A stretch of 64,000 bases of DNA, taken from Escherichia coli. Its GTDB lineage: Bacteria; Pseudomonadota; Gammaproteobacteria; Enterobacterales; Enterobacteriaceae. This document shows, piece by piece, positions 26,239 to 61,014 of this stretch; position 1 is the first letter of the stretch; every line of letters starts with the position of its first letter. A model generated the notes under the pieces. It made no database searches. It saw only the letters and a program-made list of their open reading frames with translations, and had not been told where the DNA came from. The position numbers were made by a program, and so were the translations under genes. The stretch lies in NCBI RefSeq assembly GCF_041248615.1, contig NZ_CP158426.1; one strand, written 5' to 3'.

Positions 26239-26506
26239 CCATTTCCCTTCTCTACGGATGATTTGCTGTTTTGCAAATCATCCGCTCTAAGATGATTCCT
26301 GGTTGATAATTAAGACTATTTACCTGTTATTAACACTCTCAAGATATAAAATTATTATCAGCGATATAACAGGAAGTCATTATCACCTGCGTGATATAAC
26401 CCTGCGCGCGAGCGGATTTCACGGAATAATTTCACCAGGCTTATTCTTAGCTATTATAGTTATAGTGAGCTTACTTCCGTGAATCATAAATTCAGGAGAG
26501 AGTATT

Positions 26507-43554: not shown

Positions 43555-43557
43555 GTG

Positions 43558-43590
43558 AAAGCACCTCAAAAGAAGCCTCTTGAGGTGCTT
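43558..43590. terminator. bidirectional hairpin between btuR and the accessory cassette
   Basis: inverted repeat agcacctcaa-aagaagcctc-ttgaggtgct flanked by A/T. Confidence 0.55.
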
Positions 43591-43605
43591 TAATCATGAT
43601 TATAT

Positions 43606-43914
43606 TCAAGCGGCAATAGCGAAATTCAGAATACGTGTAATCTCATTCAAATGTCCCGGATATGCTTCATGATTCTCAGCGTCAACATCTTCAATAAATA
43701 ATATCAGTTCAGTAATTAACGCATTAGCATCGTCATAATTTATCCCGGCTAACTCTGGCGAAGTTTCAGTACCATAGTTAATCGTCAGGTTGTTCATAAC
43801 TGTGAGGATATGGATAAAATATTTATGACAAACATTACATGTGGTTTTATTACCCAAAGTATTATACAGCATATCAAGTAATGCCAGTATTCTACGGTTT
43901 TGCACATCGTTCAT
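43606..43914 (-). CDS. hypothetical small acidic protein (102 aa), second gene of the AT-rich accessory cassette
   Basis: intact ORF; strong SD TAGGAGGC 6-7 nt upstream of the ATG; start lies 10 nt after the upstream lipoprotein stop; no signal peptide; no family recognised. Confidence 0.6.
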   Translation of the reverse strand: MNDVQNRRILALLDMLYNTLGNKTTCNVCHKYFIHILTVMNNLTINYGTETSPELAGINYDDANALITELILFIEDVDAENHEAYPGHLNEITRILNFAIAA

Positions 43915-43924
43915 AAAAAGCCTC

Positions 43925-44926
43925 CTATAACATTATTCCGCTGGCAATAAGTAATTTTGCCAGCCCCTCAGACGCCTTTAACCCACTAATGACCTGTGCG
44001 CGTAATATTTCATTTAATCTTTTTTGTTCAGCTGCCGTGCGTGTTTTATTAACGTATAAGCTTTTTAGATAATCACCCTTATCTATAAAGGCATTTAAAG
44101 CCTCAATCGCAGGCATGGCAGGTGCCGATGCCTGTAGTCTGGTTTCATTCACATTGATTACTGAACTTAGAAACTCCTTCCTGTTTTTCAGAGTGTTAAA
44201 CTCTGTATTCTTAGAGTTTTTAGATGCTGTATTATAATAAAACATATTATCATGCACATTCGCAAAGGTATAATTTTCAATCTTATTGCTTTTTGTATAA
44301 ATATCATTGCGCAAAACCGCCATGTTCTTTATAAGTCTTACCCAGTTTTCATCTGCCGTTTTGCCTATTTTTCCAGAATTGACTTTAATTATATATAACT
44401 CATTGAAATAATTTACCAAATCTTTAACCGCTGCTGCAGATTGAACTAAATCTTTGCTATGTGAAACACCAAGTAGTGTTTGTGCGTTGTTTGCGTGATC
44501 CAGAGCCTGTTTAAGTAATGCCACTTGCTGACTTTCCGTAGTTGCCATATCCTTTGTCAGAAGTTCCACATAAGCGCTCATGCTATTAATGACTTCCATT
44601 GAAGCCAGTAATTTTTCTTTCTCGAAAGGGACTAATTGTACTTGTTTTGTATTTGGCCCTGAACGCTGGCATAATTTTCCGCCATTCCCATCACCGCCTA
44701 TATCAATGGTATAATCAGGTCGCAGAGCACAATCCGGATTAGTCGCGTAGAAATTAACAAGGAAGTTTTCACGAGAAGCATAGTATTGTTTAAAGAAACT
44801 TGCATTCGCCGCTACTGCTTTGTTACCCGCAGTAATAACAGTTTCAGCTTGTTCGTTTTTCAATGCTTCAGTTGCACAACCTGAAAGCATTAACAGCGAT
44901 AGAAATATTCCACTATATCTAATCAT
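43925..44926 (-). CDS. hypothetical lipoprotein (333 aa), first gene of the AT-rich accessory cassette
   Basis: intact ORF with strong SD AAGAGGTGGG; type II signal peptide with lipobox LSGC; Ala at +2 predicts outer-membrane sorting; N/K/S-rich composition; no family recognised. Confidence 0.6.
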   Translation of the reverse strand: MIRYSGIFLSLLMLSGCATEALKNEQAETVITAGNKAVAANASFFKQYYASRENFLVNFYATNPDCALRPDYTIDIGGDGNGGKLCQRSGPNTKQVQLVPFEKEKLLASMEVINSMSAYVELLTKDMATTESQQVALLKQALDHANNAQTLLGVSHSKDLVQSAAAVKDLVNYFNELYIIKVNSGKIGKTADENWVRLIKNMAVLRNDIYTKSNKIENYTFANVHDNMFYYNTASKNSKNTEFNTLKNRKEFLSSVINVNETRLQASAPAMPAIEALNAFIDKGDYLKSLYVNKTRTAAEQKRLNEILRAQVISGLKASEGLAKLLIASGIML

Positions 44927-45051
44927 AACCCACCTCTTGACGTTGAGTTTATCTCAGATAATTAAATAGTAATGTGGCTATTTCCGGGTATTATTCATAA
45001 GCAAGTATGAAATTAAATTAAAATACTGCGACTATTTATCATGCTTCAAAT

Positions 45052-45080
45052 GAAGAAAAGGCCCCGCAGGGCCTTTATTT
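45052..45080. terminator. rluB terminator hairpin (bidirectional)
   Basis: ggccc-cgca-gggcc stem flanked by A-run and T-run. Confidence 0.55.
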
Positions 45081-45095
45081 TATACTTATCTTAAA

Positions 45096-45971
45096 TTAAC
45101 CGTTATTATTACGTCCGCCAGAACGGCGACCACCGCTCACCTGGCTATGACGTTTCACCGCACGACGAATCTGATTCGCCTTCATGCGACGACGGTCTTT
45201 TTCTACAGCGACTTTAGAGCTGGTTTCTGGCGGCAGCTCCACCAGTTCGCGCAGGTAGTTAGTCTGGGCGAGGTCCAGCTCCGTCCAGCCACCGCGTGGC
45301 AGACCTTTTGGCAGTGGGATATCACCGTAACGAACACGGATCAGGCGGCTTACCTGCACACCAACCGCTTCCCACAGACGACGAACTTCACGGTTACGGC
45401 CTTCGGTCAGAGTTACGTTGTACCACTGGTTGATCCCTTCGCCGCCGCTGAACTTGATGGTTTTAAAGGCTGCCGGACCATCTTCCAGCTGCACACCACG
45501 GCTTAAATCACGCAGTTTCGCGTCGTCAACCTGACCAAATACACGCACGGCATATTCACGTTCAACTTCACGGCTTGGGTGCATTAAACGGTTTGCCAGT
45601 TCACCATCGGTGGTGAACAGCAGCAGACCACAGGTATTAACGTCCAGGCGACCCACGGCAATCCAGCGTGCGCCACGCAGTTTTGGCAGACGGTCAAACA
45701 CCGTTGGACGTCCTTCCGGATCGTTACGGGTACACAACTCACCTTCCGGTTTGTAATAGGCCAGAACGCGACAAATTTGTTCAGCGGACTCACGTACCGA
45801 AATCAGGTGACCATCGATACGGATTTTCAATCCAGGGGTAATTTCAACACGATCGCCGAGTTTAGCAATTTTGCCATCAACACTCACACGACCGGCTTCA
45901 ATAATAGATTCGATTTCACGGCGAGAGCCGTGGCCGGCACGCGCCAGCACTTTCTGTAGCTTTTCGCTCAT
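45096..45971 (-). CDS. rluB: 23S rRNA pseudouridine(2605) synthase RluB
   Basis: 291-aa ORF matching RluB (S4 domain plus pseudouridine synthase core; Arg/Gly-rich C-terminus). Confidence 0.9.
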
Positions 45972-46181
45972 AGAGCTTCCTTTTGGTGTCGCCTTCCCAG
46001 GCGTCTGATATGCTTTTGTGCAACAGTGAGTCAGAACTTACATCTGACTCACTGATAGTAAAGTCTGTTTGAACTCTTCAGGCCTTAAGTAAACGACTCG
46101 ACGTTTATCGACCTGGCTTTGAGGCGCAACATACTACACTATCTTTATGGTTAAAGCTTGTTTCGATTAACGTCGATTTGG

Positions 46182-48077
46182 TTACCAACCACCACCGCCT
46201 CCGCCACCCGCACCGCCGCCAGCACCACCACCGGAATAGCTTCGCCCCAACAAACTGGTATAGGCCCCGCAACTCAGGTGCGTCTGCAATGAGAATAAAA
46301 CGCCACTACGGGCAATTTCCGGGGCGCTAACAGCCGCTGTGAGTGATGGGGTGATACGTTCTGCCCATTCTCTGCCAAGGTTTGCCGAGACCGCCCAACC
46401 TAACAATGCGTAATCCAGTTTCCGTGTTTCCCCTTTCCGCCGCCGCCCACTGTGTGTTGCCGCCTCTTTACGCGCAAGATAGTTAACGATAGCTTCACCG
46501 TGGGCATAACGTTGCTGCCCAGTTTGGGTAAACTTTGGCAGAAAAATATACCCTATGCCAGTGAGATAACCGGTCAGAAAAACAGCGCTAAAATAACCCG
46601 CTGGCATATACCAGTAAAAGAATACATCTCCGACATTGATATAGAGAGAATAAAAGGCCACGCCTGAACAAATCAGCGGTAAAAACAAAGTGATGATTAC
46701 ACAATTAACGCAAGGCTTGTCATCATCGCGGGCAAACAAAAGCTCAAGGGAACAAAATAAAAAAGGAAGAAGCCAGCAGATCATAATAAACATATCGCCC
46801 ACCAGACTCATTCCTGCCCAGCCTACGGGACTCAGGTTACCGTAGAGAATGACCGCTAATATCGCCATTCCCCCCCATTGCAAAAACGCATCAGGTCGGT
46901 AAAACGAAGACTTTTTACGCGGCAGATAAAATTTCTGCATCCGTAAAAATGCACTGCGTAAGACTCTGTTGCGTCTCCCCGTAAGAACGACCTTATCGCC
47001 TTTACGAAATAACGCTTCCAGTAATAACTTCTCTGCGGGCAGTAATACCGCATTATTTCTGGTCGCGCCTTCATTAACACGAATCAGGATTTGCTGGTTC
47101 TTGTCATACTGATCTTTCAGATGAATTTTGCCTTTCACAATCAGATTTACGATATCGGCACAAAAACCTTTATCGTCGTAAACCAGTTTCGCATCGAGAC
47201 GTAACATGCCGGGTGTGTAATCTGGCGGAATGACATCGGTTTCAATCACATCTACCGGCGTAAATTGCGGCCTGCGCTTCCAGAGATATAACCATCCACA
47301 CGCCAGGAACAGACACGGAAACCAAATTAACAACGATGACGTAGAGGGTAAAAGAAGATGGCTGAAAATATTCGTCGTTTGTGGTGCCGGGGCATTACCA
47401 AGTAAAGCGTGAGGCCAGCGGTAGAGGACCGTGAAGTCTTCACGATAAAACGGATCGCGGGATTCAATTCTTCCGTCCTCAAGGATGCGGCCATTTCGAT
47501 ATGTGTCGCCCTCTTCTCCAGTAAAGAGATCAATTTCGCTAAATGAATTACCCGCAATATCAGGCAACTGGAGAGAAAATCGGGTCTTATAGATTTCAAA
47601 CGGCCACTTGTTACCGGTCACGTTCCAGATTAACAGATCAGAATCTCCCTCACGCAGGAAAGCATTTTTAACCTGATAATGAATTTGATAATGATAGTCA
47701 CCTTGAGGCAAGAAACGTTGTTTATCGCCCACGACAATACTCATTAAACCGATATGCCAGTCAAGATGCCAGGGTTCAGGAACACCATCACGGGTGACGC
47801 CAACAATATGATAGTTCAGCAGTGCAGCGTCACCATTAGGCTGCATCCATAGTCGTGGTAAATCACGATAAAATCCGTGCTTAATCTGCTGATTTCGCGC
47901 CTGAAAATGAATGTTCTCTTTGATGTCGAGCACCCCATCCAGTTGCAGGGTGGCTTCAACATCAAAGAGCGAGATCCCTTCTTCATAAGAAGGGATCTCC
48001 GTGTTTTCTGCATAACTTAGAGATGATACAAACAGCCCTGCTATCAACAGCAAAATGCAGCGAAACTTCCCTGCCAT
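46182..48077 (-). CDS. yciQ: DUF2207-family membrane protein YciQ
   Basis: 631-aa ORF with signal peptide and multiple TM segments; C-terminal Gly/Ala tract; matches YciQ. Confidence 0.85.
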   Translation of the reverse strand: MAGKFRCILLLIAGLFVSSLSYAENTEIPSYEEGISLFDVEATLQLDGVLDIKENIHFQARNQQIKHGFYRDLPRLWMQPNGDAALLNYHIVGVTRDGVPEPWHLDWHIGLMSIVVGDKQRFLPQGDYHYQIHYQVKNAFLREGDSDLLIWNVTGNKWPFEIYKTRFSLQLPDIAGNSFSEIDLFTGEEGDTYRNGRILEDGRIESRDPFYREDFTVLYRWPHALLGNAPAPQTTNIFSHLLLPSTSSLLIWFPCLFLACGWLYLWKRRPQFTPVDVIETDVIPPDYTPGMLRLDAKLVYDDKGFCADIVNLIVKGKIHLKDQYDKNQQILIRVNEGATRNNAVLLPAEKLLLEALFRKGDKVVLTGRRNRVLRSAFLRMQKFYLPRKKSSFYRPDAFLQWGGMAILAVILYGNLSPVGWAGMSLVGDMFIMICWLLPFLFCSLELLFARDDDKPCVNCVIITLFLPLICSGVAFYSLYINVGDVFFYWYMPAGYFSAVFLTGYLTGIGYIFLPKFTQTGQQRYAHGEAIVNYLARKEAATHSGRRRKGETRKLDYALLGWAVSANLGREWAERITPSLTAAVSAPEIARSGVLFSLQTHLSCGAYTSLLGRSYSGGGAGGGAGGGGGGGW

Positions 48078-48104
48078 AGTCTTCCATCCGTGGAACGCAA
48101 TTTG

Positions 48105-60975: not shown

Positions 60976-60980
60976 TAATC

Positions 60981-61004
60981 AAAAGCCTCCGGTCGGAGGC
61001 TTTT
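60981..61004. terminator. bidirectional terminator between yciA and tonB
   Basis: aaaagcctccg-gt-cggaggctttt, a perfect hairpin flanked by A and T runs on both strands. Confidence 0.8.
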
Positions 61005-61014
61005 GACTTTCTGC

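Follow-up and report, generated by a model that had tools for sequence, protein, structure and literature searches.

A covarying stem-loop in the rluB leader of Escherichia coli and its possible descent from a transcription attenuator

We analysed a 64,000-nucleotide stretch of Escherichia coli DNA (contig NZ_CP158426.1 of assembly GCF_041248615.1; the window, in what follows) around a perfect 12-bp hairpin that lies between yciQ and rluB, the gene for 23S ribosomal RNA (rRNA) pseudouridine 2605 synthase. The structure of this hairpin, its place in the 5' untranslated region (5' UTR) of rluB, its conservation with covarying arms, the strand concerned and the read-through of transcription in strain K-12 are established below. 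Comparison of leader sequences makes it highly probable that the hairpin is a conserved leader RNA structure. As to its role, we mildly prefer to see the stem-loop as a cis-acting element of the rluB leader that descended from an attenuator or insulator terminator and that may serve as a pause or folding module in Escherichia. Taken separately, descent from a terminator or attenuator lineage is a tentative proposal that we hold somewhat less firmly, and the chances that the element still has a measurable effect on rluB in present-day E. coli appear evenly balanced.

Structure of the hairpin and its place in the rluB message

The arms of the hairpin, CAGTGAGTCAGA (46024-46035) and TCTGACTCACTG (46043-46054), are complementary at 12 of 12 positions and enclose the 7-nt loop ACTTACA (46036-46042). 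In RNA sense the element reads 5'-CAGUGAGUCAGA-UGUAAGU-UCUGACUCACUG-3', with the 5' arm of the RNA at 46043-46054 and the 3' arm at 46024-46035, and six of its 12 pairs are G-C. An earlier note on this DNA had rightly described a perfectly paired 12-bp stem between the stop of yciQ and the start of rluB, both on the minus strand (Table 1). The coordinates that it gave (46022-46052) are 2 nt too low, and its division into 12, 8 and 11 nt misassigned the first T of the right arm to the loop, which has 7 and not 8 nt. The hairpin starts 127 nt past the yciQ stop and ends 52 nt upstream of the rluB AUG; its counterpart in K-12 MG1655 (1326769-1326799) is identical, and the RefSeq annotation has no feature beneath it.

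Folding of a 43-nt piece of minus-strand RNA that contains the hairpin gave -20.1 kcal/mol, compared with a mean of -9.0 kcal/mol for shuffled sequences (z = -5.1; none of the 200 shuffles was as stable). The stem alone accounts for -19.4 kcal/mol in E. coli; it is the strongest among the homologues discussed below, and the Escherichia tail is the weakest. Perfect stems of at least 12 bp with loops of 3-10 nt occur at five places in the window and at none in 30 first-order Markov shuffles, so that such stems exceed chance, yet form a recurrent class in this window. The other perfect hairpins of at least 12 bp are found at 47971-47999 (5' end of the yciQ coding sequence), 26255-26284, 43558-43591 and 60979-61006. 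The arm sequence itself is single-copy in the window and occurs at one place per genome in 3975 E. coli genomes. Downstream of the stem the minus-strand tail is UUGCACAAAAGC, which holds no U-tract, as the earlier note had seen, and a consensus promoter and terminator scan made no call on the minus strand, neither for a terminator at the hairpin nor for an rluB promoter.

Published transcript ends place the hairpin in the message. In K-12, single-molecule real-time (SMRT)-Cappable-seq of RNA with 5'-triphosphate ends recovered a transcript that runs from a transcription start site (TSS) at 1326700 to 1327761 and covers b1269 (rluB) only, with 37 reads at its start and 18 at its end (PMC6131387 supplement). 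This TSS corresponds to window position 46123, 8 nt after the hexamer TAGTAT and 69 nt upstream of the hairpin, which therefore occupies +70 to +100 of the 152-nt rluB 5' UTR. The promoter core (46123-46136) sits in a conserved motif, GTGTA(G/C)(T/C)ATGTT.G.CC. Polymerase reads through the hairpin on its way to the rluB terminator at 1327761. A 5' UTR structure for rluB, which the earlier note had offered as one option, is thereby supported, as it is by the compensatory changes that preserve the stem from genus to genus in the rluB-sense orientation. Since SMRT-Cappable-seq removes RNAs below 1 kb (PMC6131387), a short attenuated leader is neither shown nor excluded by these data. Another start in the same data set, at 1326297, falls inside yciQ (PMC6131387 supplement), and the rnm-yciO transcript recovered there stops before yciQ.

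In the 5'- and 3'-end data sets that we checked, the only reported transcript end near the hairpin is a cut by MazF; the 2016 Cappable-seq supplements contain nothing from this region. The study of the MazF regulon, which called its sites from inspected coverage profiles, reports cleavage of rluB at an ACA whose distance to the start codon is 49 nt (PMC5001579 Table 1). The sole ACA near that distance lies at window 46017-46019, 5 nt 3' of the stem, with a 1-nt discrepancy from the published figure. The shortened rluB message stays on polysomes (PMC5001579).

When the primary transcript is folded to minimum free energy, the hairpin stands as a helix of its own in a leader that is strongly structured (z = -4.1), and the 210-nt yciQ-rluB intergenic region as a whole folds with z = -5.25. 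As a separate observation, an imperfect 16-nt repeat in E. coli (46128-46143 with 46054-46069) connects the hairpin base with the promoter region.

A perfect duplex between two co-oriented genes could also be a processing site for RNase III or RNase E, as the earlier note had proposed; such a site would part the yciQ and rluB messages or mature the rluB 5' end. In its favour are the flanking long-range pairing (inverted repeats I1 and I2) that RNA reading through from yciQ adds and the strong folding of the 210-nt intergenic region (z = -5.25). The main text of a study of RNase III targets gives about 22 bp as the duplex that the enzyme accommodates (PMC6212723). The 12-bp stem is about half of that, neither rluB nor yciQ is mentioned in the same main text, and homologues of the stem carry G.U pairs, bulges and long loops. 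In addition, with a TSS of its own, rluB has no need of processing. We therefore give hardly any credence to a processing site, and the RNase III version of the earlier proposal finds no support in the length of the stem or in that main text.

A leader layout shared across Enterobacterales

We aligned the rluB upstream regions of named genomes and of 120 metagenomic stretches found with the pattern GACGYCTGKGAAGGCGACASC; diversity was thus sampled by exact-protein look-ups and by one metagenome DNA-pattern scan. The metagenomic loci have no taxon labels and were fetched via the exact box sequence described below, so the phylogenetic limit of the box is not inferable from them.

The leaders have a common layout. 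A promoter motif (GTGTA(G/C)(T/C)ATGT.CG.CC) is followed by a variable segment and a hairpin, then by a linker of 13-18 nt, an invariant 21-nt box, a Shine-Dalgarno sequence (AAGGA) and the AUG. This order was seen in E. coli, Escherichia whittamii, Klebsiella, Salmonella, Citrobacter koseri, Cronobacter, Kosakonia, Erwinia and about 40 distinct metagenomic variants; it holds regardless of the upstream gene and extends to Erwinia. Short-leader forms, including those of E. coli strains without yciQ, combine the promoter motif (TATACTACGCGGCC) and the box with a different hairpin. When the most stable hairpin within the 60 nt preceding the box was taken from each of 38 distinct variants, the mean energy was -12.5 kcal/mol, against -6.3 kcal/mol for shuffled sequences (p = 8e-11).

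In many leaders outside Escherichia (L026, L038 and similar loci), an inverted repeat, TTCGTG...CACGAA, brackets the -10/TSS motif about 150-175 nt upstream of rluB. This promoter repeat covaries, being TTCATG...CATGAA in L040 and L127, and E. coli is without it.

Coding elements in the leader were considered and rejected. A 15-codon open reading frame (ORF) has suffered a frameshift in Escherichia sp. MOD1, only Escherichia has the AUG-UAA within the loop, and the ORFs beginning AUGAAA in the leaders of other genera lack a Shine-Dalgarno sequence and end at variable early stops, that is, they are not conserved as coding sequence.

Rfam searched over the window at a permissive E-value returned only a chance snoRNA match (E = 2.1). 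At the gathering threshold, 13 loci from other genera gave nothing at the rluB leader, the trp leader alone being detected, and no description of the rluB leader turned up in the literature that we searched. The rluB leader, with its promoter motif, covarying stem-loop and invariant box, is thus newly defined here and has no Rfam family.

Compensatory changes on the rluB-sense strand

For the covariation count, the 12 E. coli pairs were followed through a MAFFT alignment of 28 distinct homologous hairpins, in which the E. coli arms align with CAGUGAGUUAAG...CUAACUCGUUG and variants of it in 24 other lineages. Over the 12 pairs, 88.1% of the cells were paired, compared with 28-43% when the partners were slid by 1-3 columns. 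Both sides had changed at seven of the 12 pairs, with G-C, A-U, U-A and G.U all occurring at one position, for example, and none of 500 shuffles matched the covariation score. The lower stem (CA..G.G / C.C..UG) is the best conserved portion, while the two innermost pairs are mostly specific to Escherichia. RNAalifold recovered the same helix from 17 full non-Escherichia leaders, together with a box hairpin (CGCCU/AGGCG).

The pairing also discriminates between the strands. Among the outer 10 pairs, 96.0% of the cells are paired on the rluB-sense strand, 42 of them as G.U, versus 82.0% on the antisense strand. Variation within Escherichia follows the same pattern: the second major E. coli allele (1037 genomes; the perfect stem is found in 2635) has a single C-to-U change, which turns one pair into G.U, and E. 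whittamii and Escherichia sp. MOD1 have one arm base changed each, again to G.U. The two top alleles make up 92% of the 3975 genomes. Rare E. coli alleles that we sampled have either a substitution in the loop or a deletion of 3 nt in the flank, and the stem was intact in every Escherichia variant seen.

Since the arms covary and the G.U pairs fit the sense RNA only, the selected object is an RNA helix in the rluB message and not a DNA palindrome. The perfect symmetry of the E. coli sequence, 18 nt from the boundary of a haplotype-specific segment that contains yciQ (Table 1), would otherwise suit an operator bound by a transcription factor dimer, or a cruciform or a site of recombination at the edge of a yciQ insertion. 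Half-sites, however, are not conserved, the 42 G.U cells would turn into C.A mismatches at the DNA level, and a homologous hairpin stands in the same leader beside unrelated upstream genes. A function as DNA is accordingly the account to which we assign next to no probability.

Terminator-like features and the proposed role

A run of U directly after the stem marks the homologues outside Escherichia. At least four of the six nucleotides following the stem are U in 23 of the 24 non-Escherichia homologues (UUUUUG, UUUUAG, UUUCAU and UUUUUC, for instance), whereas Escherichia has UUGCAC. The E. coli tail and linker are the degenerate counterpart of the U-run plus GAAAGYAUACCA of other genera. Some short-leader variants look like canonical terminators (AAAGCAGGGC-GCU-GCCCUGUUUUU; e.g. 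GCAGGGC-GCU-GCCCUG-UUUUU). The view of the earlier note that the hairpin is not an obvious intrinsic terminator is sound for E. coli, but it overlooks the U-run after the orthologous hairpins in other enterobacteria. A terminator score of the d'Aubenton-Carafa type was discarded because the positive control, the Term-seq-confirmed terminator of rluB itself, scored -30.6, which left the score uncalibrated; the comparison of U-tails was kept.

From this anatomy we propose the following course. The ancestral and still widespread form would be a weak intrinsic terminator between a weak, sigma-70-type rluB promoter and the Shine-Dalgarno sequence. Such a terminator could damp rluB's own promoter in the manner of an attenuator, and could also shield rluB from transcription reading through from any gene that happens to fill the variable slot upstream. 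In Escherichia the stem appears to have been tightened to a perfect 12 bp while the U-run decayed to UUGCAC, and with that decay most polymerases would read through. Dominant read-through agrees with the full-length capped reads and with the missing 3' end at the hairpin. What would remain in E. coli is a pause or weak-termination and folding element that tunes rluB in cis with a small effect.

Several findings weigh against this course. In the E. coli tail UUGCACAA, only two of the six nucleotides after the stem are U. In the published K-12 Term-seq tables no 3' end falls within 1326700-1326899, a weak negative given that these lists are thresholded and rluB is weakly expressed (PMC7815308). 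The orthologous long-leader stems are rich in A/U and G.U pairs, have long loops and reach -7 to -12 kcal/mol, by which they would be weak terminators at best. The short leaders of Cronobacter and Kosakonia have hairpins without a U-run, so terminator anatomy is common and not universal. The RNAalifold consensus of the 17 non-Escherichia leaders showed no competing antiterminator helix, and among the leader ORFs there was no conserved leader peptide; we found no sensing mechanism. Moreover, 27% of E. coli genomes are without this hairpin, which is therefore not essential.

Of the neighbouring 3' ends, the Term-seq tables do include 1327761, the terminator of rluB, and 1325258, a bicyclomycin-sensitive site in yciQ (PMC7815308). 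The bicyclomycin-sensitive (Rho-dependent) ends in this region are 1325258 on the plus strand of K-12, inside yciQ, and 1326939 on the minus strand, antisense to the 5' end of rluB.

The strongest stem being joined to the weakest tail also bears on a purely post-transcriptional role. In that case the hairpin would keep the box and the Shine-Dalgarno sequence accessible, block 3' exonucleases on yciQ fragments or slow scanning by RNase E, and would so set the half-life or translation of the message. A stem that gained strength (to -19.4 kcal/mol) as the U-run disappeared is hard to square with selection for termination, and the hairpin is an independent helix in a structured leader (z = -4.1). 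The segment 3' of the stem is accessible to MazF, and the shortened message is found on polysomes (PMC5001579). Yet a post-transcriptional role leaves the U-run right after the stem in 23 of 24 other lineages unexplained, and stabilisers of the repetitive extragenic palindrome (REP) kind are multi-copy while the rluB hairpin is single-copy. We regard this role as possible and rather unlikely.

The invariant box and helix 93 of 23S rRNA

The box next to the Shine-Dalgarno sequence is the most constant part of the comparison. It is identical from Escherichia to Erwinia apart from one base, the N of a GNRA tetraloop that caps a short stem in the predicted fold CGCCU-GNGA-AGGCG; in the RNAalifold alignment, CGCCU and AGGCG were paired in 17 of 17 sequences. 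Counted in full, the box forms a 7-level stem with one A.A mismatch. Helix 93 of 23S rRNA, the substrate of RluB, shares with it the 7-level stem, a GUGA loop in most taxa, the bottom G-C pair and an A at level 2. At the position that matches the target U2605 the box has an A, and its inner stem is unlike that of helix 93.

Two further readings of these motifs were rejected. The 12-bp hairpin is not a mimic of helix 93, as the string match of 8 out of 9 (GUGAGUCAG/GUGAGACAG) is lost in other genera and the architectures differ. A CsrA site in the box loop was discarded because GGA is absent from the majority variants, which have G-U-G-A.

Hairpin, box or both might nevertheless be a protein operator bound by a repressor of rluB, for which RluB itself, through its S4 domain, is one candidate. 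The invariance of the box except at the N of GNRA suggests sequence-specific recognition, the box resembles helix 93, and the lower stem is the best-conserved part of the hairpin. Against an operator, the upper stem and the loop vary freely, and the hairpin as a whole (12 bp, a 7-nt loop and no bulge) is unlike helix 93, its GUGAGUCAG match not being kept elsewhere. GNRA hairpins are also widespread, and box and helix 93 do not agree in their inner stems. An operator of this kind seems to us improbable.

Box and stem-loop could also be parts of one device. If the box, as a mimic of helix 93, were bound by RluB in translational self-repression while the stem-loop with its U-run formed a transcription-attenuation arm, the leader would be an undescribed order-wide cis-regulatory RNA. 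On that reading, which we judge a long shot from the sequence comparison, Escherichia and the 27% of E. coli with short leaders would be natural variants with an altered attenuation arm. If true, this would be the first reported case of substrate-mimic autoregulation of an rRNA pseudouridine synthase.

Two E. coli haplotypes and a cargo slot between yciO and rluB

We searched 5426 complete E. coli genomes with a 60-nt query around the hairpin. In 3975 of them (73%), yciQ is present together with the long leader and its hairpin. The remaining major type (1442 genomes, 27%) has no yciQ; here yciO adjoins rluB across a 100-nt spacer, and a different hairpin occupies the same position in the leader. 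On one side the two haplotypes share the same sequence as far as the yciO stop, and on the other they are near-identical from GACGCCUG onwards, with one G/U difference in the box. Between these boundaries one type has 2.1 kb (46006-48104) and the other 66 nt, and the 5' edge of the box is the point where the two leaders diverge.

The absence of the hairpin from 27% of E. coli, the lost U-run, and the lack of any transcript end or phenotype tied to the hairpin would suit a relic, that is, a decayed ancestral leader terminator with no present function in E. coli. A relic should gather disruptive changes, however, and the stem is intact in all variants, the alleles that make up 92% of the genomes differ by one pairing-preserving transition, and the arm changes of E. 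whittamii and Escherichia sp. MOD1 lead only to G.U. These patterns of variation make a functionless relic improbable, to about the same degree as a protein operator.

Outside E. coli, the gap between yciO and rluB holds various contents. Beyond Escherichia, the close relatives of YciQ that we found were confined to the Klebsiella oxytoca group, where they show 55% identity and occupy the same place, and a scan of genome contigs with YciQ returned two Escherichia loci only. Elsewhere the gap contains an OprB porin gene (Salmonella) or EamA and LysR genes (locus L014), and it is empty in C. koseri, Cronobacter, Kosakonia and locus L015. The yciO-rluB gap is thus a recurrent slot for unrelated cargo genes beside a constant rluB leader. 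The comparison of the slot covered window 46006-48104 and the loci L001, L006, L009, L012-L015, L136 and L137. The hairpin as the end of a mobile element, or as a recombination site, was rejected, as the haplotype boundary is the start of the invariant box, which is common to all leader types.

Some further features of the region were recorded. The E. coli genome searches gave matches to this chromosomal region on plasmid-labelled records at 3-6 places. The C-terminus of YciQ has a long Gly/Ala-rich run, encoded by a repetitive GGN tract, CACCACCGCC..., before the stop (46182-46240, minus strand). On the other side of rluB, an AT-rich accessory insert of about 1.5 kb (43555-45095) separates the cobO/btuR stop from the rluB stop, where the gap in K-12 is 39 nt. 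It contains minus-strand ORFs of 333 amino acids (43925-44926) and 102 amino acids (43606-43914), both hypothetical proteins in RefSeq and without a match in Pfam, PADLOC or NCBIfam, and is flanked by terminator-like hairpins (43558-43591 and about 45050-45075). The insert is complete in 424 of the 5426 genomes, and parts of it are present in 1237.

Table 1. Features of the rluB leader and its surroundings, in window coordinates
Feature	Position	Strand	Basis
rluB coding sequence (23S rRNA pseudouridine 2605 synthase)	45096..45971	-	
rluB Shine-Dalgarno sequence, AAGGAAG	45976..45982	-	read from the sequence; conserved in the alignment
Invariant 21-nt box, GACGCCUG(G/U)GAAGGCGACACC	45985..46005	-	alignments; RNAalifold
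Tail and linker from hairpin to box, UUGCACAAAAGCAUAUCA	46006..46023	-	aligned tails
rluB-leader hairpin	46024..46054	-	sequence and fold; identical in K-12; conservation, covariation and strand asymmetry
rluB promoter core (-10-like TAGTAT at 46131-46136, TSS at 46123 = K-12 1326700)	46123..46136	-	SMRT-Cappable-seq; coordinate mapping; motif conservation
yciQ (DUF2207 protein), upstream gene, context only	46182..48077	-	
Haplotype-specific segment, yciQ and long rluB leader	46006..48104	.	swapped for a 66-nt short leader in 1442 of 5426 genomes

Comparison with known systems

Conserved hairpins are commonplace in 5' UTRs; the rluB leader itself had not been catalogued in Rfam or in the literature that we searched. 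The regulation of rRNA-modification enzymes is almost unstudied, and the two natural leaders of E. coli (73% and 27% of genomes) suit tests of attenuation versus product feedback. For practical purposes its value is modest, since RluB is not an essential protein and the effect of the E. coli hairpin may by now be only small.

Among known systems, attenuators based on intrinsic terminators, such as the trp leader of the same region (RF00513), likewise have a stem-loop between promoter and start codon. In most genera the rluB element shares with them four to five U after the stem, and the stem covaries. It departs from the trp type in that the E. coli hairpin has no U-tract or mapped 3' end, and in that we found no leader peptide, antiterminator or ligand-sensing domain.

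REP sequences and bacterial interspersed mosaic elements (BIMEs) are also stable intergenic stem-loops between co-oriented genes without a U-tract. The rluB hairpin differs from them in being single-copy, in having no REP consensus and in lying downstream of the rluB promoter within a gene-specific leader.

Stems processed by RNase III occur in the leaders of rnc and pnp. With these the rluB hairpin has in common a perfect duplex in a 5' UTR, although its stem has only 12 bp against the roughly 22 bp of the main text quoted above. The stabilising 5' stem-loop of the ompA type acts at the extreme 5' end of the RNA; it, too, is a cis-acting 5' UTR hairpin without a terminator tail, whereas the rluB hairpin begins at +70.

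Finally, ribosomal-protein leaders and the thrS operator, which is recognised by threonyl-tRNA synthetase (ThrRS), are autoregulatory mimics of the natural RNA substrate of their regulator. What the rluB leader shares with them is a small invariant hairpin beside the Shine-Dalgarno sequence in the mRNA of an RNA-binding enzyme. The likeness to helix 93 is partial, and it belongs to the neighbouring box and not to the 12-bp hairpin.

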